Origin: Caldisericia bacterium
Lineage (GTDB): Bacteria > Caldisericota > Caldisericia > JAAYUI01
Assembly (NCBI GenBank): GCA_963674785.1
Contig: OY771555.1
Location: forward strand, 144,851 to 208,850
Reading direction: 5' to 3'
DNA: 64,000 bases
Shown: positions 2,122 through 37,450 of the stretch, one piece after another
Numbering within the stretch: the stretch's first letter is position 1
Layout: every line of letters starts with the position of its first letter
Position numbers and translations under genes: made by a program
Notes under the pieces: model-generated
Told to the model about the DNA's origin: nothing
The model's database searches: none
What the model saw: only the letters and a program-made list of their open reading frames with translations

Positions 2122-4122
2122 TTACCTCCTGGAGGGAGACTCCTCCATCACATTGATTCTAGTATGATTTATTTCTGAATATGGTGTATATTTTTTCCCA
2201 CCACTCTCATAGAAACGTGAGTAAAACTCAAGGAAAACCAATCTTGCAGGATGCACAAAACTTCCAATTATGTTTAGGAAGAAATTGAAAAGGTGACCTA
2301 CAAAAAGTATTAAGATCGCAAAGATGATACCAAAACCCTTCAACCCCATCATCGCGGCGATTGAATTAAAAGCTTGTCCAACAATAGATGTCGTGAGTCC
2401 AAGAGCCAAAAGCCTTGAGTAACTCATAACATCTGATAAAAAACCGGTCGTACCGTATCCACCAAGTACACCATAAAGCGATATTACACCTACACCAATT
2501 CTTCCACCGACCGATTTTGCATCTCTTCCCTGTGAAAAAATAAGGAACAACGCACCGACACCAATCAGAATATACATTGTCATCATGAATACGGATGATG
2601 ATGCTCCAGGTGTCAGGAAATCGATTGCAAACATTGTTAGACCTGACAGGAAAACAATCCAACCAAGGGAATCGGTTACCGCATACAACCACTCACCATT
2701 CTTGATCTGCAGATATGCCTTATACAGAATCCCAAGAAACTGAGTTCCAATTCCAATATAGAGTGTCAGAACAAAGAACGGTATTGTTTTGATTAGTGGA
2801 TCAATTCCTATTTTCACAAGATCGTTTCTAAGACTAACAAGGGGTTCCCATGTAATAATTGTTCCAACCATGTCTCCACCCCAGGCACCAGTTAGAGCAC
2901 CAATGATGGTTACATATACACCACAGGTAATGAACGTTCCAAAAAACTTCTTTGCGCTTTCTTCATGTTTGTAGATTCTTCCAAACCAAAGTGAAAAGCC
3001 AATGAGCATGAGTCCATACAAAACATCACCAAAGCAGAATCCAAAAAAGATTGGGAAGATTATTGAAATTATAAAAGTACTATCAATTCCTCTGTAACCC
3101 GGTAATCCATACATTGCAGAGAGCATTTCAAAGTTTTTTGAGTATCTATTATTCGAAAGCTCTACAGGTGGATTATCCTCGTCAGTTATGTCTGTGATCT
3201 GAAGATGATATTTTTCAAGATTCTGTGAGATTTTGTTTTTGAAACCTTCAGCTTTTTGGGCAGGAAGATAGCCAACAAAAACTGAGGCATACATGGAATC
3301 CAACCCTAGATTTTTCACCCTCTCAGATTCTATATCGTTTTCGAGGTTATCAATGTTTACAATCAGAGCTAATTTATGTTTGTGAAAATCTTTTTTTAGG
3401 AGCTTAAGAATCTCTTTTTGCTCTGATTTGAGCCTTTCAATTTCAGCATCTATTTTCTCGACTTGTTCTTTTGGCGTGAGCTCCGAACTTGGAATCGGAA
3501 GAGATTCAAAACCATATTTTGAAAGTTCGAGTTTGACATCATCGCACTTCTCATGCTTACATGAAATTAGGACAACCCCTGAACTATAAACGGTTACTGC
3601 AACCTCATCCTCTGAATTGAGTTCTGAGATCTTTCCCAGATTTCTTCTCGGTATTTGACCAAGAATAAATGCAATGTGTTCCGTGTTTTCAATTCTTGTT
3701 GGGACAGGAAGGAATTTGTATCTTGAAATCAGATGTTTTTCATTCGAAATCTTTGAAATTGAATCTTTAAGTTTGTTATACTTTTGAGAATACTCATTCA
3801 CAGATGAAATAAATTCATGGAAATCAATACTATTTTTTAGTTCAACATATTTTTCAGGTGTAAGTCTTGGTCTTGGCCAGGAAAAATTAGATATAAATGG
3901 TAGCTTTTCTGGAAAAAAACTATCGAGATTTTCAAGAGCTTTTTTTGCTCTGTCAAGTCTCAGAGAAAACTCATTTTCACTAGAATCAGTGAGTTTTCCT
4001 TCTTTTCCAGTCTCAACTTTTCTAAAGTGCAAAAGGTTTTGTTTTTTGACAAGGTCTAAAGCTTCCCTTGCAGACCTCGAAGGAACTGCAAGCGTCACCT
4101 TCTTCATAGCAACTATTGCCAT
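2122..4122 (-). CDS. atpI: A/V-type ATP synthase subunit I (a-subunit)
   Basis: 666 aa; hydrophilic coiled-coil N-terminal half and polytopic C-terminal half; N-terminus MAIVAMKKVTL typical of subunit I. Confidence 0.9.
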   Translation of the reverse strand: MAIVAMKKVTLAVPSRSAREALDLVKKQNLLHFRKVETGKEGKLTDSSENEFSLRLDRAKKALENLDSFFPEKLPFISNFSWPRPRLTPEKYVELKNSIDFHEFISSVNEYSQKYNKLKDSISKISNEKHLISRYKFLPVPTRIENTEHIAFILGQIPRRNLGKISELNSEDEVAVTVYSSGVVLISCKHEKCDDVKLELSKYGFESLPIPSSELTPKEQVEKIDAEIERLKSEQKEILKLLKKDFHKHKLALIVNIDNLENDIESERVKNLGLDSMYASVFVGYLPAQKAEGFKNKISQNLEKYHLQITDITDEDNPPVELSNNRYSKNFEMLSAMYGLPGYRGIDSTFIISIIFPIFFGFCFGDVLYGLMLIGFSLWFGRIYKHEESAKKFFGTFITCGVYVTIIGALTGAWGGDMVGTIITWEPLVSLRNDLVKIGIDPLIKTIPFFVLTLYIGIGTQFLGILYKAYLQIKNGEWLYAVTDSLGWIVFLSGLTMFAIDFLTPGASSSVFMMTMYILIGVGALFLIFSQGRDAKSVGGRIGVGVISLYGVLGGYGTTGFLSDVMSYSRLLALGLTTSIVGQAFNSIAAMMGLKGFGIIFAILILFVGHLFNFFLNIIGSFVHPARLVFLEFYSRFYESGGKKYTPYSEINHTRINVMEESPSRR

Positions 4123-4442
4123 TTATCTTTTACCTTTGAGACAACCTTTCTTGCACAAACATCAATGTTTGTTTCTATTTTTGCTTTTTTTGTTTCGAAT
4201 CTTTCGGAAAGCACACCTTCGGCTGACTCGATCTCCTTGAGGCTAGCATCAGAAAGTCTCCTAAAAGCAATTAGCTCGGACTGTCTAGCTTCTTTGATGC
4301 TGTCATCAAGTCTGGATTTTGCATTACGGACTGCATCATCAACCATCTCTGATGCGTCACTTTTGGCAGTTTTTATGATCTGTGAAGCAAACTCTTCAGC
4401 TTCTTTTATTTGATTTATTATTTCCTCATCCATGATGACCAC
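4113..4442 (-). CDS. A/V-type ATP synthase subunit G/H-like (peripheral stalk)
   Basis: 109-aa Ala/Glu/Lys-rich coiled-coil protein at the head of the operon, overlapping the subunit I start. Likely true start at MDEEIIN (about 4433). Confidence 0.6.
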   Translation of the reverse strand: MVIMDEEIINQIKEAEEFASQIIKTAKSDASEMVDDAVRNAKSRLDDSIKEARQSELIAFRRLSDASLKEIESAEGVLSERFETKKAKIETNIDVCARKVVSKVKDKWQ

Positions 4443-4520
4443 ATCCTAACTCTTAAGCTAAAATCAGCAACTAAGCGTACATGTTGCTATGACACATAAA
4501 TCTGGAAATAGTTTTTCATT

Positions 4521-4868
4521 CTATTCCACCAAATCAATCGGGATCATCTCTATTTGTTCACTGTCGATTGCGACAAGAAAAAACTTTTGCTCGTAATCCT
4601 CAAAACTCTTGTTTTCAGAAATAAAAACCTGACTCGCAGAAAATAATCTCTTTATTCTCGTTTCTGAAAGGCTCTCTTTTGCCACACCGAATCGATTCGA
4701 TGTTCTCATTTTAACCTCAACAAAAGCAATTTCAGAAGCATTTTTTGCGATAAGGTCTATCTCACCTTCTCTTACTTTATAGTTTTTAACAACAATACTA
4801 AATCCTAGCTTGGTAAGATGTTCACTGGCTCTTTTTTCGCCAATCTTACCAACAATCTGGTTTCTCAC
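4521..4868 (-). CDS. yraN: UPF0102 family protein YraN (endonuclease-like)
   Basis: 115 aa; family resemblance (GEIDLIA...FVEVK); conserved position downstream of rnhB as in Firmicutes. Confidence 0.8.
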   Translation of the reverse strand: MRNQIVGKIGEKRASEHLTKLGFSIVVKNYKVREGEIDLIAKNASEIAFVEVKMRTSNRFGVAKESLSETRIKRLFSASQVFISENKSFEDYEQKFFLVAIDSEQIEMIPIDLVE

Positions 4869-5599
4869 TGGTTTTTTAGTAGGTCAATAATTTGGTTTTT
4901 TAGCTCTCCAGGGATTGTCTCTTTTTCGGAATCCCTTGAGATGATAAACTCAGAAAGATCGTTTGAGTGCAAGACTTTGATTGGAGAGTCAGTGATTCTA
5001 AGTGTTGTGTTTGGATGTGTGAAAACAACAACAGGTTCAATCCAGAGTCCATCGGTGTTTTCTGCTACTGATTCATCAATCACTTCCTTCAACTCCCAAG
5101 TTGAACGTTTGATTTGTCTTGCTGGATTTCCTATATGCCCTCTATAAAATCCACCTGCACGACCCCTTTTCAAATAGCTCCATTCTTCTCCCTGCCCATA
5201 TATCTCACCGTTATAGTGTTTGCTTTCGATTGCAAATATTGCGGATTTCCCAACAACAATGTGATCAATATCACAATTTCTGCCTTTCAGCGAAATATTA
5301 TTTAAAAGGGTGAAGTCATCGGAAATTTTCTCCAATGTCTTTGGAACGACCTTTTGACCAGCAAGACCAGCTCTCCAGATTGCAATCTCTCCAGCTCTAT
5401 TCATCAACACTATTCCACCAAAAAGAAAGAGTATAGTTCCGAGAATTATTAACATCCATGGCTGAAAAACACCGTCTGACGAGATTCCATAAGCAACAGC
5501 CACGAGTCCAAGTAAGATTAAAACAAAACCGCCAATAACTCCAAAAGTTTCTTTGACTATTTTTCTTTTTACAAAATCTCTTTTATTAATGACTAACAT
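4865..5599 (-). CDS. NERD domain-containing membrane protein
   Basis: 244 aa; two N-terminal TM helices followed by a NERD-like motif CDIDHIVVGKSAIFAIESKHY. Overlaps neighbours by 4-7 nt (operon). Confidence 0.7.
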   Translation of the reverse strand: MLVINKRDFVKRKIVKETFGVIGGFVLILLGLVAVAYGISSDGVFQPWMLIILGTILFLFGGIVLMNRAGEIAIWRAGLAGQKVVPKTLEKISDDFTLLNNISLKGRNCDIDHIVVGKSAIFAIESKHYNGEIYGQGEEWSYLKRGRAGGFYRGHIGNPARQIKRSTWELKEVIDESVAENTDGLWIEPVVVFTHPNTTLRITDSPIKVLHSNDLSEFIISRDSEKETIPGELKNQIIDLLKNQ

Positions 5600-6153
5600 A
5601 TCCTGAAGCTCCTTCTATGTATCCTTGAAAGCGCATTTTCCTTTATCGCCCTAAAATGCTCTGCGGTTCCATACCCTTTATTTTTTTCAAACCCATACTC
5701 TCGATAGATTTTTGAATACGTATACATGATATAGTCTCTTACGACTTTAGCAACAATTGAGGCTGCGGCAATTGCCTGAAATATTGAATCCCCTTTGACA
5801 ACAGACTCAACACAAGATGGCATATCATTGGGGATATGTGGTCCATCAATTAGAATCTTACCATCGGGATGATCAGAAAAAATGTCGAGAGCAACTCTCT
5901 TCATTCCACCCATAACAGCTCTAGAAATTCCATTTTCATCGATAAAATCATTCGAAATAACGGTTAGACTTACTAAAGAACTTTCTAGAATAATATTTGC
6001 CAAAAGAGTTCTCTTTTTTTCAGATAATTTCTTTGAATCGTTAACATCTTCAATTGATTCGAACAATTTGCAACCACAAATAACAAGGGGGCCTGCAATA
6101 GGCCCCCTTCCTGCTTCGTCAATTCCAATGTGATTTTTATCAAATATTAAAAT
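5593..6153 (-). CDS. rnhB: Ribonuclease HII (start codon non-canonical or unresolved)
   Basis: ORF track gives 5593..6066 (TTG start), but the conserved N-terminal catalytic motif IGIDEAGRGPIAGPLVICGC lies in the same frame upstream (about 6070-6135). No ATG/GTG/TTG exists between the in-frame TAA (6169-6171) and 6066; candidate AUU at 6151-6153 is preceded by AGGUAGGAA. 5' end uncertain. Confidence 0.75.
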   Translation of the reverse strand: MLIFDKNHIGIDEAGRGPIAGPLVICGCKLFESIEDVNDSKKLSEKKRTLLANIILESSLVSLTVISNDFIDENGISRAVMGGMKRVALDIFSDHPDGKILIDGPHIPNDMPSCVESVVKGDSIFQAIAAASIVAKVVRDYIMYTYSKIYREYGFEKNKGYGTAEHFRAIKENALSRIHRRSFRIC

Positions 6154-6160
6154 GCAGTTC

Positions 6161-6745
6161 CTACCTGATTATATGAAATCTATTGAGAGGCCAGAAAATA
6201 ACAAATGCCTCACCAACAATACTCTTTTTTTCAATTGGCCCAAACGATCTGGAGTCTTTTGAAGAATCTCTATTGTCTCCAAGAACAAAATACTCGTTAT
6301 CACCAAGCAACTCTCCACGCTTATGGCCTTCAGATTCTGGAGGGAGGACTTCTTGGCTATAATCGGTATCTGGAAACTTGTTCTCTTCAATAAACGGAAC
6401 ACCGTTTAAATAAACAGTTTTTGTATCTTGATCGTAGTCAATCCACTCGCCCGGAAGACCAATAACACGTTTGATATACTCTTCGCCATTATTCACACTT
6501 TTTGGTGGGTGAAAAACAACAATATCGCCACGTTTGGGTCCCGCCGAGATAAAAGCAAGCTTATTCACAAGAATCAGATCATCGTTGAGAATAGTCGGAG
6601 TCATTGAACCCATCTGCACCCTAAAAGGTTGAACCAAAAAAGTTCTGACACCAAAGGCAAGCAGCAGCGCAAGGACTACAACCGCGATCCACTCAAGAAT
6701 CTCTCTTCTTTTCGACTTTGTTTTAGGAGAAGCTAATTCGGACAC
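6161..6745 (-). CDS. lepB: Signal peptidase I (paralog 1)
   Basis: 194 aa; N-terminal TM anchor; Ser box GSMTPT, Lys box YIKRVIGLPGE, box E GDNRDSSKDSRSFGPI. Confidence 0.9.
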   Translation of the reverse strand: MSELASPKTKSKRREILEWIAVVVLALLLAFGVRTFLVQPFRVQMGSMTPTILNDDLILVNKLAFISAGPKRGDIVVFHPPKSVNNGEEYIKRVIGLPGEWIDYDQDTKTVYLNGVPFIEENKFPDTDYSQEVLPPESEGHKRGELLGDNEYFVLGDNRDSSKDSRSFGPIEKKSIVGEAFVIFWPLNRFHIIR

Positions 6746-6748
6746 TTT

Positions 6749-7132
6749 TTAGTTCTCTTCCGATTTTTTAGCTTTTGTTTCCTTTCTAACAATCCTGTCT
6801 TTAAGACGCTGTTTCTTACCAATCCTGTCTCTAAGGTAGTAAAGTTTTGCCCTTCTGATTTTACCGTGTCTGACAACTTCAATTTTGTCAACAAGCGGGG
6901 AATGTAGTGGATAAACTTTTTCTACTCCAAGGTTCTTTACAACTTTTCTTACAGTAAAAGTTTCAGCTACTCCGCCATTTTTTCTTGCAATCACGGTTCC
7001 TTCAAATATCTGAATCCTTGTTTTTGATCCTTCAGTAATTTTCTGATAGACCTTTACTGTATCACCGATCTCAAAACAATTCGGATCCTTCTTGAGCTGA
7101 TCCTTCACCACATCTCTAAGTAATGACTGCAT
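6749..7132 (-). CDS. rplS: 50S ribosomal protein L19
   Basis: Strong L19 resemblance (GDTVKVYQKI..., HSPLVDKIEVVRHGKIRRAKLYYLR). Start moved to ATG at 7130-7132, preceded by AGGAAGGA; the ORF-track start at 7168 is an upstream alternative. Confidence 0.9.
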   Translation of the reverse strand: MQSLLRDVVKDQLKKDPNCFEIGDTVKVYQKITEGSKTRIQIFEGTVIARKNGGVAETFTVRKVVKNLGVEKVYPLHSPLVDKIEVVRHGKIRRAKLYYLRDRIGKKQRLKDRIVRKETKAKKSEEN

Positions 7133-7242
7133 TTTATTCCTTCCTAATCTCCCTGGCAAAGGACACACCTAACCCAGGGCATACTTCTCATAACAGAATA
7201 TCGAATATATGGTAGTGTAGGACAATATTCAAGTATTTTGTT

Positions 7243-7794
7243 TTAAGGAATAAACTGAAAATGCCCAGGTGGCAGAAAAATTAAAAACGCTTTTCCAAGA
7301 ATCTTTGACTTTTTGACAGGTCCAAAGGCTCTCGAATCAAGTGAGTGTGAACGATTATCACCAATAACGTAGTACTCATCTTCACCAATCAACTCACCAG
7401 ATGCAGAATCACTGTTTTCGAGATTTGTTATTTCTCCAGTTGGGTCAGATAAAACATGGTCGCTGGTTTCAGAAATTCTTTCACCATCAATCCATATCTC
7501 TCCAGCTTTATATTCAATTCTTTCCCCGGGAAGCCCAACAACTCTTTTGATATAGTCATCTTTCCCAGTATATGGTGGTTCAAAAATAACAATATCCCCT
7601 CTTTTTGGTCCATCAAAAATATACGCCATTCTATTTACAAGGATATAATCACCATCATTTAGTGTGGGATACATTGAACTCATTCTCACCTGTCTGGGCT
7701 CAATTGCATAAACCCTGACAACCATCGCAAGACCAATAATCACAGTAAGAACAACTACCCACTCGAGAATTTTCCTCATCTGTTTACTTTTCAT
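7243..7794 (-). CDS. Signal peptidase I (paralog 2)
   Basis: 183 aa; SSMYPTL, YIKRVVGLPGERI, GDNRSHSLDSRAFGPV. Confidence 0.9.
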   Translation of the reverse strand: MKSKQMRKILEWVVVLTVIIGLAMVVRVYAIEPRQVRMSSMYPTLNDGDYILVNRMAYIFDGPKRGDIVIFEPPYTGKDDYIKRVVGLPGERIEYKAGEIWIDGERISETSDHVLSDPTGEITNLENSDSASGELIGEDEYYVIGDNRSHSLDSRAFGPVKKSKILGKAFLIFLPPGHFQFIP

Positions 7795-7807
7795 TTCACA
7801 CTAACTT

Positions 7808-8377
7808 TTACTTTATGAGACCAACATGGTCAAGAGGCCAAAAGACGAAAAAGGCTTTCCCAACAATCTGATTTCTTTTTATCGGGCCAAAACTTCTTGA
7901 ATCCATGGACACATTTCTATGGTCCCCAACAACATAATACTCATCTGAATTAAGCTTTATCCCTTTTTCAAGAATCTCGGAAGCAGAATTAAAATCTTGC
8001 TTATAGTCTGTTTTTTGTTTATCACTATTTTCAACAAAAAGTTTTCCATTGATATAAATCTCATCGCCTGAGACAGAAATGTATTCACCCGGAAGACCGA
8101 TAACCCTTTTTATTAAATCATCTCCAAAACCTTTATTTGGATGGAAAACTATCACATCTCCACGTTTTGGTTTAGATGTATAATAACACATCTTGTTTAT
8201 GAAGACTCTGTCATGATCTTCGATCGTTGGATACATAGAAGATTGTCTCACACCCCTTGGTTCAAATGCATAAATCCTTGTCACCAAAGTAAGGGATGAT
8301 GCAAAAACTATTGCCAAAACCCAACTTATAATCTCTTTTCTTAAACTACTTTTCATAAAAACCCCTCCAACAATCAA
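7808..8377 (-). CDS. Signal peptidase I (paralog 3)
   Basis: 189 aa; SSMYPTI, LIKRVIGLPGEYI, GDHRNVSMDSRSFGPI. Likely start at MKSSLRK (about 8356). Confidence 0.9.
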   Translation of the reverse strand: MIVGGVFMKSSLRKEIISWVLAIVFASSLTLVTRIYAFEPRGVRQSSMYPTIEDHDRVFINKMCYYTSKPKRGDVIVFHPNKGFGDDLIKRVIGLPGEYISVSGDEIYINGKLFVENSDKQKTDYKQDFNSASEILEKGIKLNSDEYYVVGDHRNVSMDSRSFGPIKRNQIVGKAFFVFWPLDHVGLIK

Positions 8378-8931
8378 AAAATACTCAGGTGATCAAGTGG
8401 CCACATAACTATCAAAACCTGACCCTTGATAAGTTCTTTCTCAATCGGCCCAAATGCTCTTGAGTCTCTGGAGACATCTCTGTTGTCCCCTAATACATAA
8501 TACTCGTCATCCCCCAGAATAATTCCATCGTCCGAGTTGCTTATTTGCATTCGGTTCGAGGCTTCAAAATTATGTCTAATGTTATCTTTGTCAAAAATCT
8601 TGCCATTTACAACAAGTTTACTTCCATTGTCTTCAATCACATCACCAGGTAAACCTACGACTCTTTTAACAAGGTCTTCTTCTTTATCAGGTGACCTGAA
8701 AACGATAATGTCCCCTCGATGGGGTTTTCCAAACGAATATGCAAGTTTTGAAACAAGGATAATATCCCCGTCCATAAGAGTTGGAAGCATTGATCTCTGT
8801 CTAACCTGTCTTGGTTCTAGAACGGATACTCTCAGGAAATAAAAAACTGTCAATACCAGAAGTATCGACACAGCCATTTTTATAGAATTTGCAAAAACTT
8901 TATTCATCTCTAAGACCATACAACCTATCAA
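8374..8931 (-). CDS. Signal peptidase I (paralog 4)
   Basis: 185 aa; RSMLPTL, LVKRVVGLPGDVI, GDNRDVSRDSRAFGPI. Likely start at MNKVFAN (about 8907). Confidence 0.9.
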   Translation of the reverse strand: MIGCMVLEMNKVFANSIKMAVSILLVLTVFYFLRVSVLEPRQVRQRSMLPTLMDGDIILVSKLAYSFGKPHRGDIIVFRSPDKEEDLVKRVVGLPGDVIEDNGSKLVVNGKIFDKDNIRHNFEASNRMQISNSDDGIILGDDEYYVLGDNRDVSRDSRAFGPIEKELIKGQVLIVMWPLDHLSIF

Positions 8932-9451
8932 GAATAATTGCTCCAGCAGCTCGAACCGAAAGATGATTAAACTCGGTTGGTCCGCAGATAGGATTCAGAA
9001 TATAATCACATCTTTTCATCGTCTCATCCGTCAAACCCCAACCTGTTCCAAGAATTATCATTATGTTTTCTAGTTCCAATTTTCTGAAATCACCAAAGCT
9101 TATTGAATTTTCATTTCTCTTTGCACTGGTGCCAATGATACGAGGTTTCGCACCTGCGATCTTTGTAAAGTCTTCAATCGCCAAATCGAAATTGGGAGTT
9201 ATTCTGCAAAGCTCAAGTGCATGTGATCTGTGTGGATTCCACGTCCTTCCACCACCAACATTCCAGAAACCAAGGATTCTCTCAACGATTCCTCTCTGAA
9301 GTGGAGCAGGATGAGTGATGTAAAACCTATCAATTCCAAATGTTCTACTTGACCTTGCAAGGTCGTGAATATCAAATGGAGTCACAGATGAAGCTTGAAT
9401 TTCATTTTTCCTGTCAAGTACCGGATGATGTATGAGGACGAGTGATTTCAA
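8900..9451 (-). CDS. SPOUT-superfamily methyltransferase-like protein (trmD-operon associated)
   Basis: 183 aa; motifs ILGTGWGL and HLSVRAAGAIILDRL resemble SPOUT proteins; start overlaps the trmD stop (ATGA). Family assignment is from memory and tentative. Confidence 0.5.
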   Translation of the reverse strand: MKSLVLIHHPVLDRKNEIQASSVTPFDIHDLARSSRTFGIDRFYITHPAPLQRGIVERILGFWNVGGGRTWNPHRSHALELCRITPNFDLAIEDFTKIAGAKPRIIGTSAKRNENSISFGDFRKLELENIMIILGTGWGLTDETMKRCDYILNPICGPTEFNHLSVRAAGAIILDRLYGLRDE

Positions 9452-10194
9452 AGTTTTTCCTCCAGCTCTTTTATCTCAGATATGATTTTTAGGAGAATTT
9501 TTTTGTCAGTATTACAAAGATCAGCATTTAAAAGGAGGTCGGGTCTCATCATAAGTGTTCTTCTGAGTGCCTGTTCAGTTCTCCACTGCGAGATCTTTTT
9601 GTGATTACCAGATCTGAGGATTTTTGGAACCTCTGATTCCAAAAGTTCTGCAGGTCTAGTGTATTGAGGATATTCGAGAAGATTGTCATCAAAAGATTCA
9701 ACATCAAGTGAATCGTGTTTGCCAAGAATGCCTGGAATCAATCTTGTGACGGCATCAGCCATCGCAAGTGCTGCAAACTCGCCACCTGTCATTATAAAAT
9801 CACCGAGTGATAACCAATCTGTGCAATAGGAGGAGACTCTTTCATCAATTCCTTCGTAGTGCCCACATATAAAAGTAATGGCGGGAGCGTTTGAAAGGTC
9901 TTTTGCAATTTTCTGGTTGAAGGTTTTCCCAGCAGGCGAGGTCAAGACAATCCTGGAATCCTCTGGTAAATCAAGTGAGTTAAGTAACCTGAAAATAGGT
10001 TCAGGTTTCATAAGCATTCCGGCACCACCACCATACGGTGTATCATCAGTTGTATTGTGCCGATCTCCCGAAAAATCCCTGATGTTTATTGCCTGAAATT
10101 CAAGGAGGCCAGCCTCTACTGCCCTCCCCATTATTGAAACTCCACAAGAGTTTTCAAAAAACGACGGGAAGGTCGTTGCAAAGACCAGCCTCAA
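9448..10194 (-). CDS. trmD: tRNA (guanine37-N1)-methyltransferase
   Basis: 248 aa; motifs DDTPYGGGAGM and ICGHYEGIDERV; TGA stop. Confidence 0.9.
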   Translation of the reverse strand: MRLVFATTFPSFFENSCGVSIMGRAVEAGLLEFQAINIRDFSGDRHNTTDDTPYGGGAGMLMKPEPIFRLLNSLDLPEDSRIVLTSPAGKTFNQKIAKDLSNAPAITFICGHYEGIDERVSSYCTDWLSLGDFIMTGGEFAALAMADAVTRLIPGILGKHDSLDVESFDDNLLEYPQYTRPAELLESEVPKILRSGNHKKISQWRTEQALRRTLMMRPDLLLNADLCNTDKKILLKIISEIKELEEKL

Positions 10195-10203
10195 AATTAA
10201 TTC

Positions 10204-10608
10204 CTAACCTTCGGTTATTGATTGAACAATTCCATCTTTCACAACAATCTCTGCTGCGCCAAGCTTTGAATCAAGATTATCTCCTACTTTGATTTCGGTT
10301 GTTCCCTCAAGTAATCCCTGATTGAACAAATCTCCGTCCTTCATTTTGGAAACCTGATTCACTCTTGACTCGAGCTCCTTGATCGTTGCTTCTCTGGAGC
10401 TTTTTTCTCTTTCAAGCTGTTCTTTGACCTGCATAATCTGGTTATAATCCATACTACCAGTTTTAAGCATGAGCTGTTGCTCTGATGATTTCAGCTTATC
10501 AAGTTCAACCTTGATCTCTGAGATCATACTCTGAACTTGTCCTGAGAACTGTTTTCTGAATTCTTCCGTAACCACCGATTTGAGGGTTACTTTTCTGTTA
10601 ATCAACAC
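10204..10608 (-). CDS. YlqD-like coiled-coil protein
   Basis: 134 aa, coiled-coil-rich; sits where ylqD lies in the Firmicutes rpsP-ylqC-ylqD-rimM-trmD-rplS cluster. No PRC-barrel, so not RimM. Confidence 0.5.
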   Translation of the reverse strand: MLINRKVTLKSVVTEEFRKQFSGQVQSMISEIKVELDKLKSSEQQLMLKTGSMDYNQIMQVKEQLEREKSSREATIKELESRVNQVSKMKDGDLFNQGLLEGTTEIKVGDNLDSKLGAAEIVVKDGIVQSITEG

Positions 10609-10851
10609 TTATTCAGAGGCCTCAATAACGTTTACTTCAGCTTTTTTACCATGTTTGTTGGAGACGGCACGGATGAGAACACGGAGAGCGTTAATTGTGC
10701 GACCCTGTTTACCAATGACTTTTCCGAGATCAGCCTGGTCAACTTTGATTTCATATGTGAGGTGCTGTTCGCCAACGAGTTCGTTAATGTCTACCATGTC
10801 TGGGTTATCAACAAGCTGCTTTACGATGTAATTGAGTGTGTCTTTAAACAT
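10609..10851 (-). CDS. KH domain RNA-binding protein (YlqC/UPF0109)
   Basis: 80 aa; GKVIGKQGRTINALR KH motif; immediately downstream of rpsP. Confidence 0.8.
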   Translation of the reverse strand: MFKDTLNYIVKQLVDNPDMVDINELVGEQHLTYEIKVDQADLGKVIGKQGRTINALRVLIRAVSNKHGKKAEVNVIEASE

Positions 10852-10855
10852 AATG

Positions 10856-11161
10856 TTAATCCTCCTGGTTAGTGGCAGAATCTGCCTGCTTTGTGTTTGT
10901 CTTCTGTTCCTGATACTTTGCCCATGTCCCCGTCTGCTTCAGCATTGCTAGTGCTGAATCGGTGTATTCAACTCCGACTCCGAGCCAGTAGAGAACTCTG
11001 TCCTCATTATAGTTGGATACTTTGTTATCATGAATGAAATCGATGTGTCCAAGCAGTTCGATATAATCACTGCTTGTTGCCTGTTTTCTGTCCATAACAA
11101 CAAGACGGAAGCTGGGTTCGTGCTTCTTACCTACGCGTACAAGTTTGAGTTTCGCGGCCAA
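10856..11161 (-). CDS. rpsP: 30S ribosomal protein S16
   Basis: S16 pattern AAKLKLVRVGKKHEPSFRLVVMD. ORF track starts at an upstream TTG; the second in-frame TTG (codon 13 of the track ORF) gives the usual N-terminus. Confidence 0.85.
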   Translation of the reverse strand: MAAKLKLVRVGKKHEPSFRLVVMDRKQATSSDYIELLGHIDFIHDNKVSNYNEDRVLYWLGVGVEYTDSALAMLKQTGTWAKYQEQKTNTKQADSATNQED

Positions 11162-11338
11162 TTTGGTCTGGTCCCCCTTCTTTTGATTATGTTGCAATCG
11201 TGGAATTTTATGTATCTACCGCTGATTGTCAAGTGATTTAGGTTATAAGAATGTTTTTAAGATGTTTACATTTATTTTTATCTAGTTATTGCACCCATAT
11301 GAAACTCGAGTAGAATAGCACAAAACACTGGAGGAGCG

Positions 11339-12850: not shown

Positions 12851-12935
12851 CCTATCCAAAGCATATTAAAAACGATAACTAAATCCTTGTGTCAAAATAA
12901 GAAAGCAGATACTATTTTCGGTGTTTGGAGGAAAC

Positions 12936-14402
12936 ATGAAAAATAAAATTACTGTTGTTTTAATAACCGTTCTTTTGGTTATTTTTATTGGTGGGGCAGT
13001 CTCACTTGGGCTTGTGGCTGATGCAAACGAGAATTCTCCTGGTCAGACAGATTACGCCAGTGAAAATGCTATGTTGTTTGTGCAGTTTGACTTAGAGTAC
13101 AACGCTCAAGATTTGATTGACGAAGTAAAACTTGTAATTCCGATGTTTGAAGATTTGATTGATGAAGAATTTGTTGGATTACTTGATTTTGATTACTCAT
13201 TCATAGACCTAGCGGGTTTTTATGTATTCGAGTCATACAGCGAAATTGACTACTCAATAAACAGCACCTTTGGGTTAAGGCTTTCAGGGGAAGGTGATCC
13301 TGAAAAAGGAATCGAATCAATTCTTGGCTATCTTGAAGAAACTTTTGAATTAGGAATTGAACATACAGACGAAGGCTACATAATCATTGATAACATCTAC
13401 ACAATGTATTTGGCTGAAGACTACATTCTTTTTGCTGAAGATACTCAATCAATTGAGTTTGCTCTTGACATAAAAGAGAACGACAAGCCAACCATCGCTG
13501 ATAGTCCCAATTGGAAAAAAGTTGAAAACGATTTATCTAAAAACTTCTCTTTCCTCATTAACTACCCATCCTTTATGGGCGAAAGCAGCATTCCAATTGC
13601 TGGAACATATATAAATCCAAGCAAAAATGAATATGGAATCGAACTTATTCTGGTTGATGGAAGAGAACAATTCGAAAACATGTTTTCTTTTGATGCTACG
13701 GGAGAGATTGCATCAAGTCTCAACTCTCTTTTTGATCAATCCAGAGACCTGTCAGATACAATATCATATCTTCCTGACACTGGACTTCGTGGGGCAATTG
13801 CTGGAATCCCAAATTTCGATGAATATTTCACTACTGTCGAGTTTCTTGAGGGCAGCAATGGGTATTGGTTAGACCTAGAAGATGAGTATCTTGGTAAAGA
13901 AGGTTTGATGTATGAGGCAACTGACATTGAACCAAAAGAGCTTCTTCTGAAGCTCTATCCTGAGAAAACTTACCACTATGAAGAAACCGAAGATGGGTTT
14001 GAGCTATACAGACTTCCATTCTTTTTTGATCCGTCAGAGGATGAATTTGACATAACCGACAAAACTCCAGATTTGTTTTGTCAAATCGATGAAAGCAAGA
14101 TATACGTCGTCTCAGACGAATCAATGAAACAAGAAACCTGGGAAAAATCAGAATTCAAGGATACTGGTGATTCTGTAGCATTCTTTGAGCTTGACTATGG
14201 AGAATTGCTCGAATCGATGGCTTCATCTGATGATGAAATGGGTTTTGGAATTGATCCATCTCTTTTAGCGGGACTTGTCAAGGAAGCTGACATAAAAGTA
14301 AACGTCAGATTATTTGAATTAAAACCAAATATAAAGCTTGATGTAATTATGAGTGGCGACTTCGAACTGCTTTCTGAGCTTGTTGAGAGTCTATTGCCTT
14401 GA
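12936..14402 (+). CDS. Membrane-anchored hypothetical protein (tandem paralog 2)
   Basis: Paralog of 11339..12850 (SPNWKKVENDLSKNFSFL, EYGIELILVDGREQ, QSRDLSDTISYLPDTGLRGAIAGIPNF). Start moved to ATG at 12936, preceded by GGAGG. Confidence 0.7.
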   Translation: MKNKITVVLITVLLVIFIGGAVSLGLVADANENSPGQTDYASENAMLFVQFDLEYNAQDLIDEVKLVIPMFEDLIDEEFVGLLDFDYSFIDLAGFYVFESYSEIDYSINSTFGLRLSGEGDPEKGIESILGYLEETFELGIEHTDEGYIIIDNIYTMYLAEDYILFAEDTQSIEFALDIKENDKPTIADSPNWKKVENDLSKNFSFLINYPSFMGESSIPIAGTYINPSKNEYGIELILVDGREQFENMFSFDATGEIASSLNSLFDQSRDLSDTISYLPDTGLRGAIAGIPNFDEYFTTVEFLEGSNGYWLDLEDEYLGKEGLMYEATDIEPKELLLKLYPEKTYHYEETEDGFELYRLPFFFDPSEDEFDITDKTPDLFCQIDESKIYVVSDESMKQETWEKSEFKDTGDSVAFFELDYGELLESMASSDDEMGFGIDPSLLAGLVKEADIKVNVRLFELKPNIKLDVIMSGDFELLSELVESLLP

Positions 14403-14440: not shown

Positions 14441-16684
14441 ATGAGAAGTCAAAGAGCGAGAATAGCATTCGTATTGTTTTTGGCAATCTCGCTTGCCTTT
14501 GCGCCCTACTCTGCTTCCGCAAGATCAATCTCTTGGAATATGTTTGGTTTCAATGCAAGCCATACATTTGCAACAGATGAGCAGATTTCCACAGACTTAT
14601 CAGTCGACTGGATGTATGATACTGGAGGAGGAGTTGTTGCAACTGCAACCCCGTGTTACGAATCTGGGAGATTTTACGTCCCTCAAGCATCGGGCATGAT
14701 CAGTTGTTACAATGAGGAAACGGGAAAGAGATTGTGGAGATCAAAGCTTTCTTCTGCCCCAATCGTTTCGAAACCAAAACCCGTTGGTGGATACCTAGTA
14801 ACCACTTCTTATGATGGAAAACTCTACTCACTTTTTGCAAAAGATGGCAGCACCTACCGAAGCCGTGATATTGGATCACACACCTCAACCTCTCCTGTTG
14901 TGAGTAATGGGTATATCTTCACTGTCACAGATGAAGGTGAACTTGCCAAATGGACAATAAATGGTGTTTTCAAGGTTCAACAAAAAAATATAGAATCGCA
15001 AGTAAAATTAGATACTGACCCTGTCGTAACGAGAAAAGGGATAGCTATTGCAACAAACGATGACAAGATAAAATGTTTCGACATAAGATGGGGTAAAAAT
15101 CTTGAACTTAAATGGGAACGCTCAATTGCCATTCCATCTGGATCGAACTCCATGACCGAGACTGCCGATGGAATTTTGACAGTTGATTCTGATGGGATAC
15201 TTCATTATCTAAACTGGGACAATGGTAAAGATATCTGGGCTCTTCCTCTTGGTGAAGAGGTTCTATCAGGGATCATAACTGACTCTGGGAATGCTTATCT
15301 TGCAACAATGAGTGGTAATGTTCACTCAATATCAATTTCAGGTGGACGTTCTGATTGGATGAGAAGCCTCAAAGAAGAGGTTGTAAGCTCAAATCTTTCC
15401 ATCTCTGGTGGCAAGCTTTATGTCGGCAGCAAAAGACCTGCGAGACATTTGCACTGTTTAACATTGACGAGTAGCTCACTTTGGAACGAATGGTTCGAAA
15501 TGCCGTTTGGATGTAATATCTCTGCGGGGCAAAACGGCGTGCTTGTTATCCCAACAAGTGGTCAGGGTCAATATTTATCTCTATCGACATCAGATACCAT
15601 CTGGAAGTGTGATGTTGGAGGGCTTTCAGAAAGTGCACCAGTAGTCGACGGCAACCAAGTATTTTTCACTCTAACGGATGGTTCAGTTAGATCGATCAAC
15701 TCAGACAATGGAAGACTTATTTGGAGAAAAGATTTTGAAACACAAATAAATTCATCTCCTGCAATTGGAAACGGCAAGATAGTGCTTGCCCCAAGCAACA
15801 AACCTGTTGTGTGTCTGGACTCAAAAAATGGCAGGGAATTATGGCAAACAAATCTTTACAAGTATGTTGGCTCTGCACCAACCATCTATGGTAACACTGT
15901 ATTTGTTGGGGCATGGGATGGACTTGTGTACTCGTATGACCTTCAAACAGGCAACCCTGAAAGACAATACAAAACCTACGGACAGATAACTTCCTCCCCG
16001 ACGATCACAAGAGACGGTGTATTTGTTGGATCACACGACAGATTCTTCTACAAATTTCACAGAATTAACGGGAACAATGAGTGGCTTTATCCAACAGGAA
16101 AAGTTAAGAGAACCTGTGCTGAATCAAACAGGAACGGTTTTGTAATCTCTGAGAACACTATAACCTCACTTGACATGAAAAAGAGTCACGTCAGCTTGAA
16201 TTGGAGCCGCAAATTTGACTCTTTGGTCATCGCTGAACCCGCCTATAGCCAGACTCACCTTTTTGTAATGACTGCTGATGGCTATGTTACATGTATTGAC
16301 CAGAACGAGGATAATGGGGAAACCTATGTGTGGAAAAAGAAGCTTTCTCTGGATGGTTCTTACAAGAGCATTATTTTATGCCGAGACAGATTATGCATTT
16401 TGACCGGAAAATCCATTTATATTTTGTCCGCCGAGACAGGTAAGGAATTGTGGAATTATAAGCGAGGAATCAATATTACAGGGATGGTTCTCTCAAATGG
16501 CAAACTCATAATCTCAACACAGTCTGGTTCAATTGTCTGCATGAGTCCAACTCAAAATGTAAACGTACAAAAACCAGACAAGCTTCCATCCGCAGAGTAC
16601 ACACTCGACCCAAAATCCAAAGAGGATGTAATTAATGAAGCAATTCAAAACAAAACAACACCTGACCAAATCATGGTTTGGTAG
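14441..16684 (+). CDS. Secreted PQQ-type beta-propeller repeat protein
   Basis: 747 aa; signal peptide MRSQRARIAFVLFLAISLAFAPYSASA; repeated propeller-blade motifs (ETGKRLW, KNGRELW, AETGKELW). Confidence 0.75.
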   Translation: MRSQRARIAFVLFLAISLAFAPYSASARSISWNMFGFNASHTFATDEQISTDLSVDWMYDTGGGVVATATPCYESGRFYVPQASGMISCYNEETGKRLWRSKLSSAPIVSKPKPVGGYLVTTSYDGKLYSLFAKDGSTYRSRDIGSHTSTSPVVSNGYIFTVTDEGELAKWTINGVFKVQQKNIESQVKLDTDPVVTRKGIAIATNDDKIKCFDIRWGKNLELKWERSIAIPSGSNSMTETADGILTVDSDGILHYLNWDNGKDIWALPLGEEVLSGIITDSGNAYLATMSGNVHSISISGGRSDWMRSLKEEVVSSNLSISGGKLYVGSKRPARHLHCLTLTSSSLWNEWFEMPFGCNISAGQNGVLVIPTSGQGQYLSLSTSDTIWKCDVGGLSESAPVVDGNQVFFTLTDGSVRSINSDNGRLIWRKDFETQINSSPAIGNGKIVLAPSNKPVVCLDSKNGRELWQTNLYKYVGSAPTIYGNTVFVGAWDGLVYSYDLQTGNPERQYKTYGQITSSPTITRDGVFVGSHDRFFYKFHRINGNNEWLYPTGKVKRTCAESNRNGFVISENTITSLDMKKSHVSLNWSRKFDSLVIAEPAYSQTHLFVMTADGYVTCIDQNEDNGETYVWKKKLSLDGSYKSIILCRDRLCILTGKSIYILSAETGKELWNYKRGINITGMVLSNGKLIISTQSGSIVCMSPTQNVNVQKPDKLPSAEYTLDPKSKEDVINEAIQNKTTPDQIMVW

Positions 16685-20173: not shown

Positions 20174-20419
20174 CTAATTTCGATCTTTCCAGGCCGGAAG
20201 TTTAGCAAGATTCTTGATCGCCATCTCTCTTGCAGCGGCTTCGTCAAAGCCTTGTGACTGAACTAAAAAACCAGTCATACCAGCAACACATTCTTCATAA
20301 CTTTTCATTGAGCCATCTTCTCTTGCACAGTAGAGGCAATAGTCCTTTGACTCATCTCCAAGAGCAAAATCCTCCTTCTTCTCCATCGGCATTCCGCAAC
20401 AAATACAAATTTTACTCAT
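20174..20419 (-). CDS. Zinc-ribbon domain protein
   Basis: 81 aa; CICCGMPM...CLYCA Cys pairs. Its TAG stop directly abuts the ATG of the ATL-like gene. Confidence 0.6.
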   Translation of the reverse strand: MSKICICCGMPMEKKEDFALGDESKDYCLYCAREDGSMKSYEECVAGMTGFLVQSQGFDEAAAREMAIKNLAKLPAWKDRN

Positions 20420-21017
20420 CTTTCCAGTTCCTTTCTGAAATCAGATTCATATAGTTATCAACAAGTTCATATCCTCTTTTTTTAAGTAATGACCCTTCTA
20501 CACAATAAAATCTTTTATTCTGAAGATAGTGATGAATAAGCCCAATCCAGGTTGTAAAAAGAAAGCTCATGGGCATTCTTTTTATTAAACCTTTTTCCAT
20601 TTCGGTTTTTGCGGCACTATACATTGAGTGAGAAATCGCGGAATGAATAGAAACAACACTTACCTGTACATCCTCGGGCAAGGTGTTTAGTTCAGAAATC
20701 AACCTTGCATAAAGGTCTTCATACTCAGATAAAGTTGCAAGATGTGTTTTTAGTACAGTTCTTATACCCATATCCGCATCAATATCCGCCCTCATTTTCC
20801 TTGTGACACGCATACCAAAATCATGCATTACGGTAACAAGTAATTCATCGCGAGTTGGAAAATGCAAAAAAACCGTTCCGTGCGAAACGCCTGCAGTATT
20901 TGCAATATCGATCGTTCTAGCTCCACTTATCCCATCAAGCTCAAAGTGTTTCATTGCGGAATCAATAAGCTTCCTATGAGTATCTTCACGTTTTTCTTTT
21001 CTAGATTTTGCGATCAT
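20412..21017 (-). CDS. TetR/AcrR family transcriptional regulator
   Basis: HTH ARTIDIANTAGVSHGTVFLHFPTRDEL. The ORF-track N-terminus (WARQDSNLRPLPCEGNALPTEPP) is antisense translation of tRNA-Val, so start moved to MIAKSRKEK (ATG 21015-21017). Confidence 0.8.
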   Translation of the reverse strand: MIAKSRKEKREDTHRKLIDSAMKHFELDGISGARTIDIANTAGVSHGTVFLHFPTRDELLVTVMHDFGMRVTRKMRADIDADMGIRTVLKTHLATLSEYEDLYARLISELNTLPEDVQVSVVSIHSAISHSMYSAAKTEMEKGLIKRMPMSFLFTTWIGLIHHYLQNKRFYCVEGSLLKKRGYELVDNYMNLISERNWKDE

Positions 21018-21133
21018 ATCTTTTAAACTGAGTTCAGACTCACTGAGTTTTGACTCATAATATGCCGAAACATCAACATTGTCAAGTTCAACTGTTGACT
21101 TGTGAATACGTAACAATAATATATTAAACATGT

Positions 21134-21209
21134 GGGCGGGTGGCTCAGTTGGTAGAGCATTTCCTTCACACGGAAGAGGTCGCAGGTTCGAGTCCTGTCT
21201 CGCCCACCA
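21134..21209 (+). tRNA. tRNA-Val (anticodon CAC), CCA encoded
   Basis: GGGCGGGTGGCTCAGTTGGTAGAGCATTTCCTTCACACGGAAGAGGTCGCAGGTTCGAGTCCTGTCTCGCCCACCA folds as cloverleaf: 7-bp acceptor, D arm GCTC/GAGC, anticodon loop TTCACAC, T loop TTCGAGT. Confidence 0.9.
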
Positions 21210-21243
21210 ATAAGTGCTCAAAAGAGATTAAAGGGGTGCAGTT

Positions 21244-36796: not shown

Positions 36797-37450
36797 GTGA
36801 AAAGATTATTATCTATTGTGCTTATTGGAATGCTTTTATCAGGAGTGGTAGCCCTAGGAGTTACATTTGCAGAGGAAGAAACTCTTCCCGAGAAACCAGA
36901 ACGACCAGAAACAATCAGATTAAAGCTCTGGGTTAACACTTCAAAATTTGTGAAGGATGATGTTCAGATTACTGATCTTGACCCTGCACCGACAACAAAA
37001 TCACCACCTCTTCCATCAGAGCTTGCAGGAAACACATACATGCCTGTAAGAGCAGTTTTTGAAGCTCTTGGGGCAGATGTGCAGTGGATTGATGACGACA
37101 GAAGGGTAGACGTGCAGCTCGGAAGAATAAAGCTTCAGCTTTGGGTTGACAATGTATCGACGGCAAAAATCAATGACGAAGAGGTGACCATATACAATGC
37201 CGACGAATCAAAGGTTCTCTACCCAACGATTGTAGATGGAAAAACAATGCTTCCATTAAGATTTGCCTGTGAATCACTTAAAGCTGATGTTAACTGGATT
37301 GAAAGTGAATCGGCAATCGAAATCGTATACCCCTCTGAAACGATGGAAGAGCCACCAGCAGATGGCGAAGAAAGACCTGAACCTCCAGGAGATGGCGAAA
37401 CTCCGCCAGACAAACCAGAACCACCAGAAGATGGAGGAGAACAGCCGTAA
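36797..37450 (+). CDS. Secreted copper-amine-oxidase N-terminal ('stalk') domain protein
   Basis: 217 aa; GTG start; signal peptide; stalk-domain motifs (YMPVRAVFEALGADVQWIDDD..., MLPLRFACESLKADVNWIESE); Pro/Glu-rich tail. Confidence 0.75.
   Translation: MKRLLSIVLIGMLLSGVVALGVTFAEEETLPEKPERPETIRLKLWVNTSKFVKDDVQITDLDPAPTTKSPPLPSELAGNTYMPVRAVFEALGADVQWIDDDRRVDVQLGRIKLQLWVDNVSTAKINDEEVTIYNADESKVLYPTIVDGKTMLPLRFACESLKADVNWIESESAIEIVYPSETMEEPPADGEERPEPPGDGETPPDKPEPPEDGGEQP

Follow-up and report, generated by a model that had tools for sequence, protein, structure and literature searches.

The rplS locus of a Caldisericia bacterium encodes four divergent type I signal peptidases (SPases), which we call SP1 to SP4. 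In the 64,000-nucleotide stretch of DNA that we analyzed (the window), SP4, SP3, and SP2 are contiguous and SP1 lies across rplS, giving a 3 + rplS + 1 layout. We consider it likely that all four genes code for functional, membrane-anchored enzymes with a Ser/Lys dyad, that they descend from old duplications in place, and that SP1 is the main peptidase, with SP2-SP4 as accessory enzymes of overlapping function. The original prediction described five paralogs, four of them in tandem. The window holds four S26 genes, three of them side by side and one set apart by rplS.

We confirmed the four minus-strand open reading frames (ORFs) at 6161-6745, 7243-7794, 7808-8377, and 8374-8931 (SP1, SP2, SP3, and SP4, respectively); the coordinates first given for all four genes were correct. 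The genes sit within a co-directional run in the order rpsP, KH, ylqD, trmD, PF09936 methyltransferase, SP4, SP3, SP2, rplS, SP1, and rnhB (Table 1). This order bears out two earlier claims, namely that the peptidase genes are embedded in the rpsP-trmD-rplS cluster and that rplS (an ORF of 6749-7168) separates the first paralog from the second. Spacing in the SP4-SP3-SP2 trio ranges from overlaps to a 13-nt gap, rplS and SP1 are 3 nt apart, and the gap between SP2 and rplS is 74-110 nt.

Table 1. Genes of the rpsP-to-rnhB run, with positions in the window.
Feature	Position	Strand	Product length and start	Evidence and context
rnhB (RNase HII)	5593-6145	minus	putative start, see text	PF01351, E 1.1e-24; downstream of SP1
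SP1, type I signal peptidase	6161-6745	minus	194 aa, GTG start	directly downstream of rplS
rplS (ribosomal protein L19)	6749-7132	minus		PF01245, E 8.3e-45
SP2, type I signal peptidase	7243-7794	minus	183 aa, ATG start	
SP3, type I signal peptidase	7808-8356	minus	182 aa from ATG 8356	
SP4, type I signal peptidase	8374-8907	minus	177 aa from ATG 8907	
SAM-dependent RNA methyltransferase (PF09936)	8900-9451	minus		PF09936, E 8.6e-63; between trmD and the peptidase trio
trmD (tRNA m1G37 methyltransferase)	9448-10194	minus		PF01746, E 2e-59
ylqD	10204-10608	minus		PF11068, E 1.3e-26
KH-domain protein (KhpA/YlqC type)	10609-10851	minus		position and ortholog annotation
rpsP (ribosomal protein S16)	10856-11197	minus		first gene of the run; orthologs carry PF00886

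For several genes, the likely start lies inside or outside the listed ORF. The rplS ORF reaches GTG 7168, and its likely start is ATG 7132, with GGAAGGA upstream. SP3 is listed from TTG 8377 and probably begins at ATG 8356, which is preceded by GGAGGGG. As listed, from TTG 8931, the SP4 ORF extends into the methyltransferase gene upstream of it; the true start of SP4 is likely ATG 8907 or 8919. The listed rnhB ORF starts at TTG 6066, from which the PF01351 match covers profile positions 34-197 only. The catalytic GIDEAGRGP motif of rnhB lies in frame upstream of that codon, in a segment without a canonical start codon, and ATT 6145 is a possible start. Among the neighboring genes, rplS is 98% identical to that of the Caldisericia assembly L041 and 87% identical to that of L001, the orthologs of the KH-domain protein in L041 and L042-L048 carry PF13083, and the methyltransferase gene keeps its position in all Caldisericia loci examined (L001, L002, L041, and L042-L048).

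A fifth copy was sought by searching all six-frame, stop-to-stop segments of at least 40 aa from the window with a profile of the four sequences, filters off. This search recovered SP1-SP4 only, and the next match had an E value of 0.23. Regular-expression scans of the window for Ser boxes (P-type and SipW-type), Lys boxes, and GDN boxes found no further copy. We rejected a fifth paralog within the window on the combined outcome of the profile search and the motif scans.

Judged by their sequences, SP1-SP4 are real bacterial type I signal peptidases (MEROPS S26A; PF10502; TIGR02227). Each matches PF10502 (Peptidase_S26) over its full length, with E values of 5.5e-48 (SP1), 9.3e-50 (SP2), 1.4e-48 (SP3), and 7.1e-45 (SP4), scores of 153-169 bits (cutoff 22.9), and coverage of profile positions 2-168. 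Scores against the equivalog model TIGR02227 (sigpep_I_bact, cutoff 47) are 151, 150.6, 144.8, and 150.9 bits in the same order. Models for related peptidases fit less well. The archaeal/ER-type model TIGR02228 stayed below its cutoff, as did the models for the conjugative TraF peptidase (TIGR02771, TraF_Ti; 31-49 bits, cutoff 100) and the Ni-SOD maturation protease SodX (TIGR02754; 49-57 bits, cutoff 63). The closest solved structure is Staphylococcus aureus SpsB (overall E values of 1e-22 to 1e-23; 1.5e-23 for SP1 and 1e-22 for SP2).

The catalytic boxes are intact. The Ser boxes (GSMTPT in SP1, SSMYPT in SP2 and SP3, RSMLPT in SP4) align with SGSMMPT of LepB and ESMDPT of SpsB, and we take their nucleophilic Ser to be the equivalent of E. 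coli Ser90 and SpsB Ser36. The Lys boxes (YIKRVIGLPGE, YIKRVVGLPGE, LIKRVIGLPGE, and LVKRVVGLPGD in SP1 to SP4) align with YIKRAVGLPGD of LepB; the general-base Lys is presumably the equivalent of E. coli Lys145. A Lys box sets this family apart from the Ser/His enzymes of the ER and SipW types. All four copies also have box E (GD[NH]R..S.DSR.FGP), which reads GDNRDSSKDSR in SP1, GDNRSHSLDSR in SP2, GDHRNVSMDSR in SP3, and GDNRDVSRDSR in SP4. The Asn to His change in SP3 is absent from its L041 ortholog, which has GDNR. The original prediction held that every box is retained in each gene; this is right for SM.PT, KR[VI][VI]GLPG[ED], and DSR..GP, and for GDNR in all but SP3, which has GDHR. Each copy has a single hydrophobic stretch of about 19 residues before the Ser box (mean Kyte-Doolittle hydropathy 1.9-2.6; IAVVVLALLLAFGVRTFLV in SP1) that would serve as an N-terminal anchor. 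No frameshifts or internal stops interrupt the genes, and the catalytic Ser, the Lys, and the DSR box are found in every copy of every genome examined. With these boxes kept, all four copies look catalytically competent, as first proposed, and they would belong to the short Gram-positive (SpsB/SipS-like) class of type I signal peptidases, with a Ser/Lys dyad for catalysis.

We compared the four copies with each other and with those of relatives, among them L041 (GCA_041391325.1) and L042-L044 (GCA_035448305.1 and two metagenomes). Pairwise identity among SP1-SP4 is 37-45% at the amino acid level and 51-54% at the DNA level. A BLAST matrix gave one-to-one best hits with L041, L001, L002, and L044; SP3 is not present at the L001 and L002 loci. 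Conservation is highest for SP1, at 95% identity to the L041 ortholog. The corresponding values for SP3 are 87-89% (P0002/L041) and 54% (L044). SP4 diverges most and evolves fastest of the four. Relative to L041, the closest relative, dN/dS was 0.020 for SP1, 0.063 for SP2, 0.074 for SP3, and 0.088 for SP4 with dS of 0.84-1.03; since dS is almost saturated at about 1, the dN/dS values are approximate. These ratios indicate that SP1-SP4 are under strong purifying selection. Because their identity is low, their orthologs are one-to-one, and their dN/dS is 0.02-0.09, we regard them as old, maintained paralogs and not as recent or decaying duplicates. The original prediction had likewise called them divergent, and every copy is indeed matched by a separate ortholog in further Caldisericia assemblies. 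Near-identical or decaying copies in close relatives, the pattern that would speak against this claim, were seen in no relative.

The phylogenetic comparison with related genomes proposed at the outset, run on the four copies, placed each paralog in its own Caldisericia orthogroup. In this neighbor-joining tree, all Caldisericia copies group together, apart from the Clostridia copies. Three of the four orthogroups have bootstrap values of 97, 100, and 100 (SP2 100, SP4 97); the SP3 type has 54 and is weakly supported beyond L041. Bootstraps for the rooting inside the Caldisericia clade are only 6-39, and it is synteny that points to SP1 as the probable ancestral copy. SP1 occupies the position of the single lepB of Clostridia, directly after rplS and with rnhB downstream. 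Such a placement is common among the Clostridia loci we fetched, which have one copy (two in Lachnospiraceae loci) versus four here. A single S26 gene directly follows rplS in 18 of 38 loci from outside Caldisericia, and 3 more of the 38 have two downstream copies.

Across related lineages, the rplS locus carries two to four SPase I copies. L041 has the same 3 + rplS + 1 layout as the window, and L042-L044 have four copies with the trio inverted. The layout is 2+1 in L001 and L002, 1+1 in L048, and 0+2 in L045 and L046. We propose that ancient tandem duplications within the Caldisericia lineage gave rise to SP1-SP4 at a widely conserved lepB-after-rplS site, where copy number would later have risen and fallen. 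With their gains and losses and a single inversion, these loci form a natural series in which the divergence of SPase paralogs could be studied.

Sequence differences among the orthogroups bear on the roles of the copies. Seven alignment columns are fixed within each orthogroup and different between orthogroups, and three of these adjoin the catalytic Ser or Lys. Among the seven are F/R/R/R (E. coli F84 equivalent), M/M/Q/Q (S88 equivalent), and I/I/I/V (I144 equivalent). SP2-SP4 share an invariant Arg at the equivalent of E. coli F84, a position that we take to line the S3 subsite, and have group-specific residues at the two positions preceding the nucleophile. The orthogroup-specific residues near the nucleophile are hints of some specialization, and the residues by the catalytic Ser and Lys are targets for mutagenesis of SPase I substrate selection. 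The main housekeeping enzyme is most likely SP1, in view of its place at the ancestral site, its far higher conservation, and its aromatic residue at the F84 equivalent. SP2-SP4 are probably accessory, with substrate preferences that would largely overlap and differ quantitatively. Such a split would agree with that between major and minor SPases in Streptomyces, Listeria, and Bacillus.

Candidate substrates are encoded in the window. In the part of the window from 11 to 64 kb, 32 ORFs reach 150 aa or more; about 9 of them have N-termini of the Sec/SPase I type and 2 look like lipoproteins, as scored by eye and with a hydropathy heuristic. The earlier claim of unusually many secreted proteins is loosely supported by these exported-type N-termini, but a heuristic count does not establish that the number is unusual. 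Type I signal peptidases cut preproteins behind sites of the A-x-A type. The cleavage-site classes of these candidates, proposed as a sign of specialization, gave none, since all have ordinary small -3/-1 motifs.

A strict division of labor, in which each paralog serves its own substrate class, is doubtful. The window is rich in PQQ beta-propeller and Cu_amine_oxidN1 surface proteins, and these might, for example, be substrates of SP2-SP4. The residues that flank the nucleophile and the general base fit such specialization in being orthogroup-specific and conserved across genomes, as do the long retention of all four copies under purifying selection, the many exported proteins encoded nearby, and the existence of dedicated peptidases such as Bacillus subtilis SipW (TasA/TapA) and Actinomyces LepB2 (pilins) (PMC5817204). 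However, the core pocket positions barely differ among the four copies (Val where E. coli has I86, Ile or Val where it has I144), and the predicted cleavage regions of the exported proteins are ordinary (ASA, VFA, ISA, AFA, TFA, and VNA). Related lineages manage with two or three copies, and the peptidase genes lie in a housekeeping operon and do not adjoin candidate substrates. It is also unlikely that the secretome is split between a canonical SP1 and copies SP2-SP4 for other P3/P2 contexts or surface-protein families, in a scheme conserved across Caldisericia. If true, this would be a stable four-way division across a class of small-genome anaerobes, expressed inside a ribosomal operon.

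Pure gene dosage, with equivalent copies kept only for total peptidase activity under a heavy secretion load, seems improbable to us. The variation from two to four copies between lineages, the growth-linked operon, and the many exported proteins in the window are compatible with it, but dosage copies are usually homogenized or recent. SP1-SP4 are neither so similar to one another nor free of stable orthogroup-specific residues, and they differ several-fold in evolutionary rate. We give very little credence to a dead or decaying copy, like S. aureus SpsA, or to an array that is an assembly artifact. The GDHR of SP3 and the fast evolution of SP4 could be read as decay. Against this, the catalytic boxes are conserved throughout, the reading frames are unbroken, and dN/dS is at most 0.09, and we rejected an inactive copy or pseudogene on motif conservation and dN/dS. 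An assembly artifact was rejected because the layout recurs in independent NCBI, ENA, and JGI assemblies (L041, L042-L044). We favor one main and three overlapping accessory enzymes as the probable reading.

The arrangement has precedents. A sipW-sipX-sipY-sipZ cluster in Streptomyces lividans/coelicolor was reportedly described by Parro et al. The Streptomyces sipWXYZ genes are SCO5596-5599 (PMC6344877) and lie beside rplS (SLI5595/SCO5595; PMC4511581); SipY is the major peptidase, for which SipW, SipX, and SipZ can compensate (PMC8724576). The likeness to the window is close, with four divergent, active-looking SPase I genes clustered beside rplS in an rpsP-trmD-rplS neighborhood (PMC6344877, PMC4511581, PMC8724576). 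The window has at least three divergent SPase I genes adjoining each other and rplS; the Streptomyces arrangement was read from gene numbers, which place all four genes on one side of rplS, whereas rplS lies inside the Caldisericia array (3 + 1). Streptomyces belongs to Actinomycetota and the array described here to Caldisericota. In the neighbor-joining tree, the comparison was with Clostridia, from whose copies those of Caldisericia stand apart as one group; this favors duplications within Caldisericia that were independent of the Streptomyces array.

The Listeria sipXYZ genes presumably lie near ylqF and rnhB. In Listeria monocytogenes, SipX, SipY, and SipZ are likewise encoded by neighboring paralogs; SipZ suffices for normal secretion, the others are conditional, and SipX has a niche role (PMC4010754). 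Listeria has three copies versus four here, with roles established by experiment there and proposed from sequence here. Bacillus SipS/T/U/V and S. aureus SpsB resemble SP1-SP4 in being short P-type enzymes of about 180-195 aa with one N-terminal anchor and without the large E. coli-type domain II. Bacillus carries its paralogs at scattered chromosomal sites or on plasmids, and they are not known to form a cluster at rplS. In S. aureus, SpsB is accompanied by an inactive SpsA; every Caldisericia copy here keeps its catalytic residues. SPase paralogs number five in B. subtilis, where specificities overlap, six in B. anthracis, and seven in B. cereus (PMC5817204). Overlapping specificity is the rule in most characterized bacteria with multiple SPases (PMC5817204, PMC8724576). 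We searched the literature on signal peptidase in Caldisericota and found no paper. With Streptomyces and Listeria as earlier examples of clustered SPase genes, the finding holds but is unremarkable, and the four-copy array reveals no new mechanism or system. Its value is mainly one of annotation, in that the poorly studied and almost uncultured Caldisericia keep two to four old SPase I paralogs at the rplS-lepB site.

Because the rpsP-to-rnhB genes form one tightly packed, co-directional run, the peptidases are probably co-transcribed with ribosomal-protein and tRNA-modification genes. Such co-transcription would tie peptidase supply to growth. The SP2-rplS gap could be the seat of an internal promoter and hence of more than one transcript. 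An Rfam search of the gap upstream of rplS for a regulatory RNA such as an L19 leader (E up to 1) returned two sub-threshold chance hits only. A scan for promoters and terminators was uninformative on operon structure because overall counts were no higher than in shuffled sequence. A promoter-like site (TTGACA-16-TAAAAT, 11/12) lies upstream of rpsP at 11232-11205.

We identified four genes for type I signal peptidases (SPase I, family S26), SP1 to SP4, on the minus strand around rplS. Each protein covered the Pfam Peptidase_S26 profile end to end and scored 145-151 bits against the NCBIfam equivalog TIGR02227 'signal peptidase I' (cutoff 47). All four fell below the cutoffs of models for conjugative TraF, the Ni-SOD maturation protease and archaeal/ER-type SPases. 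The nearest solved structures were S. aureus SpsB (E ~1e-22 to 1e-23), the short SPase I 4nv4 and E. coli LepB. In structure-relative alignments, the serine of SM.PT aligned with the nucleophile of LepB and SpsB, and the lysine of (Y/L)(I/V)KR aligned with the general base. At 177-194 aa, SP1-SP4 belong to the short Gram-positive type of SPase, in which the big second domain seen in E. coli LepB is missing. Each has a single hydrophobic stretch of ~19 residues N-terminal to the Ser box. Start-codon inspection suggests that SP3 begins at ATG 8356, which is preceded by GGAGGGG, and SP4 at ATG 8907 or 8919, rather than at the listed TTG codons. The feature is real, and its SPase I paralogs were correctly identified.

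Features of the window discussed in the text
Feature	Coordinates	Strand	Remark
rnhB region	5593-6160	-	
SP1	6161-6745	-	Peptidase_S26, E 5.5e-48
rplS	6749-7132	-	between SP2 and SP1
SP2	7243-7794	-	Peptidase_S26, E 9.3e-50
SP3	7808-8377	-	Peptidase_S26, E 1.4e-48
SP4	8374-8931	-	Peptidase_S26, E 7.1e-45
PF09936 SAM-dependent RNA methyltransferase	8900-9451	-	after trmD
trmD	9448-10194	-	in run
ylqD	10204-10608	-	in run
KH protein	10609-10851	-	in run
rpsP	10856-11197	-	in run
Anchored proteins, ~500 aa	11339-12850; 12921-14402	+	paralogous, divergent from rpsP
Exported proteins	14441-16684; 36797-37450; 48789-50336; 55572-57278		Cu_amine_oxidN1 with PQQ-like beta-propellers or Ig-like/cohesin-like/glucodextranase-B
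ORF	20412-21221	-	crosses tRNA-Val
tRNA-Val (CAC)	21134-21209	+	sole tRNA gene in window
ORF, 1205 aa	24302-27919	+	N-terminus Ser/Thr protein kinase-like (GEGGMGEVYLA...)

The original prediction counted five paralogs, four of them in tandem. A profile of SP1-SP4, run with all filters off against six-frame stop-to-stop segments of at least 40 aa, found no fifth S26 copy in the window (next-best match, E = 0.23), and scanning the window for P-type and SipW-type box motifs yielded no copies beyond these four. SP4, SP3 and SP2 adjoin one another, and SP1 lies on the far side of rplS. Because the count is four rather than five and the layout is three plus one across rplS, the observation was only partly confirmed; the gene order bears out the placement of rplS between SP1 and SP2, inside an rpsP-trmD-rplS cluster.

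The peptidase genes sit in a single co-directional, close-packed run: rpsP, KH, ylqD, trmD, PF09936, SP4, SP3, SP2, rplS, SP1 and rnhB. A NERD protein gene, yraN and V-type ATPase genes lie beyond rnhB. Within the SP4-SP3-SP2 trio, neighbouring genes either overlap or lie up to 13 nt apart, 3 nt separate rplS from SP1, and a gap of 74-110 nt lies upstream of rplS. We infer co-transcription of the run from this tight packing. A good sigma-70-like site is present upstream of rpsP; the promoter/terminator scan overall performed no better than on shuffled sequence, and an Rfam search of the region detected no family. In E. coli, rimM precedes trmD in the trmD operon; the window's trmD cluster contains no rimM. 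The PF09936 gene follows trmD in every Caldisericia locus fetched, as it does in the window.

Several lines of evidence bear out the predicted old divergence of the copies. Pairwise identities among SP1-SP4 are 37-45% for the proteins and 51-54% for the DNA. In a neighbour-joining tree (100 bootstraps) of Caldisericia and Clostridia SPases, the Caldisericia copies clustered together, separate from those of Clostridia, and fell into four orthogroups. Bootstrap values were 97 for the SP4 type, 100 for the SP2 type, 100 for the SP1 type among close genomes and only 54 for the SP3 type beyond L041, one of the loci from related Caldisericia assemblies (L-numbers). A BLAST matrix gave clean one-to-one best matches between the window copies and those of L041, L001, L002 and L044; assignment was ambiguous in the more distant L045, L046 and L048. 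The L044 orthologs are 66, 47, 54 and 46% identical to SP1, SP2, SP3 and SP4. Orthology is one-to-one even in L044, which shares 73% identity with the window in rplS and 72% in TrmD; the four-way split therefore predates substantial divergence within the class.

All four copies are under strong purifying selection. Compared with L041, dN/dS was 0.020 for SP1, 0.063 for SP2, 0.074 for SP3 and 0.088 for SP4 (dS 0.84-1.03), making SP1, at 95% identity, the most constrained. The catalytic Ser, Lys and DSR box are kept in every copy of every genome examined, as intact motifs had been predicted for SP1-SP4; the box reads GDNR..S.DSR, with GDHR in SP3 and GDNR in the SP3 ortholog of the closest relative, L041. 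The pattern that would have spoken against old divergence, young and nearly identical copies of which some are decaying, was not seen in relatives.

We compared the locus with its relatives. The best rplS matches in a species-level genome collection were L001 (a MAG, 87%) and L002 (79%, an 'uncultured Caldisericales' MAG), and SP3 matched a protein labelled 'signal peptidase I [Caldisericia bacterium]' at 89% and one from another Caldisericia genome at 54%. These matches assign the window to a Caldisericia (Caldisericota) genome. The neighbourhood is conserved in every relative, and the number of S26 genes varies. Three precede rplS and one follows it in the window and in L041 (GCA_041391325.1). 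L042-L044 (GCA_035448305.1 and two metagenomes), from another Caldisericia lineage, have the same numbers with the trio inverted, and an S24 peptidase (UmuD-like)/Y-family polymerase (IMS)/SRAP cassette is inserted between the trio and rplS; this arrangement lies at ~2960-7110 of those loci. Counts before and after rplS are two and one in L001 and L002, one and one in L048, and zero and two in L045 and L046. No SP3-type gene was found within the 20 kb fetched for L001 or L002. Among 38 non-Caldisericia loci, a lone S26 gene immediately follows rplS in 18, and three, from Lachnospiraceae, have two downstream of it; several of the remainder are truncated or from Patescibacteria. These counts make lepB directly after rplS the common background arrangement, a place held in the window by SP1.

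Clustered SPase I arrays have already been described; the one in Caldisericia departs from them only in detail and is not a new system. The Streptomyces array comprises SCO5596-SCO5599 (PMC6344877) and adjoins rplS, gene 5595 in the same numbering (PMC4511581), so both arrays share an anchor point. The Caldisericia array differs in that rplS lies inside it and in belonging to a different phylum; its duplications were probably independent. Our search of a literature library found no paper mentioning signal peptidases in Caldisericota, and public records already list the genes of the relatives as signal peptidase I.

Specialisation of SP1-SP4 is a plausible hypothesis. We compared 18 SPase sequences, drawn from the five genomes in which orthology is clear. 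Of the alignment columns, 27 do not vary among the 18 sequences, and seven are fixed within orthogroups and different between them. Three of these seven adjoin catalytic residues; mapped from the structure-relative alignments, they read (SP1-SP4 order) F/R/R/R at the equivalent of E. coli F84, M/M/Q/Q at S88 and I/I/I/V at I144, directly ahead of the catalytic Lys. We take these positions to line the S1 and S3 subsites, as in LepB structures. Such residues near the active site would fit a degree of divergence in substrate preference. Against specialisation, all four copies have Val at the I86 equivalent, the window's exported proteins have ordinary small -3/-1 motifs (ASA, VFA, ISA, AFA, TFA, VNA and similar), and related lineages have only two or three S26 copies. 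Characterised multi-SPase bacteria, with overlapping specificities and one major enzyme (PMC8724576, PMC4010754, PMC5817204), also count against it.

For the 32 ORFs between 11 and 64 kb that are 150 aa or longer, we judged export by visual inspection and a hydropathy heuristic. About nine have Sec/SPase I-type N-termini, two are lipoprotein-like and several have N-terminal anchors. The window thus looks rich in exported proteins, as predicted, but this kind of count does not establish an 'unusually large' set. Pfam domains among the exported proteins include PQQ-like beta-propellers, Cu_amine_oxidN1, Ig-like, cohesin-like and glucodextranase-B, and the domain content of the Cu_amine_oxidN1-bearing members suggests a cell-surface protein family. 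The ~500-aa paralogs have N-terminal membrane anchors and no solid Pfam match (one has a weak DUF3352 match); every Caldisericia locus examined has one or two of these genes at the equivalent position. Because the ORF at 20412-21221 crosses the tRNA gene, at least its 5' end is probably spurious.

The listed rnhB ORF, from TTG 6066, leaves out the catalytic motif of the N-terminus. The same frame encodes GIDEAGRGPIAGP shortly before this TTG, and none of ATG, GTG or TTG occurs ahead of that stretch. A possible non-canonical start is ATT 6145, which follows AGGTAGGAA. The corresponding region of L041 rnhB contains a 1-nt frameshift, and L001 and L002 encode full-length proteins with a normal GTG start.
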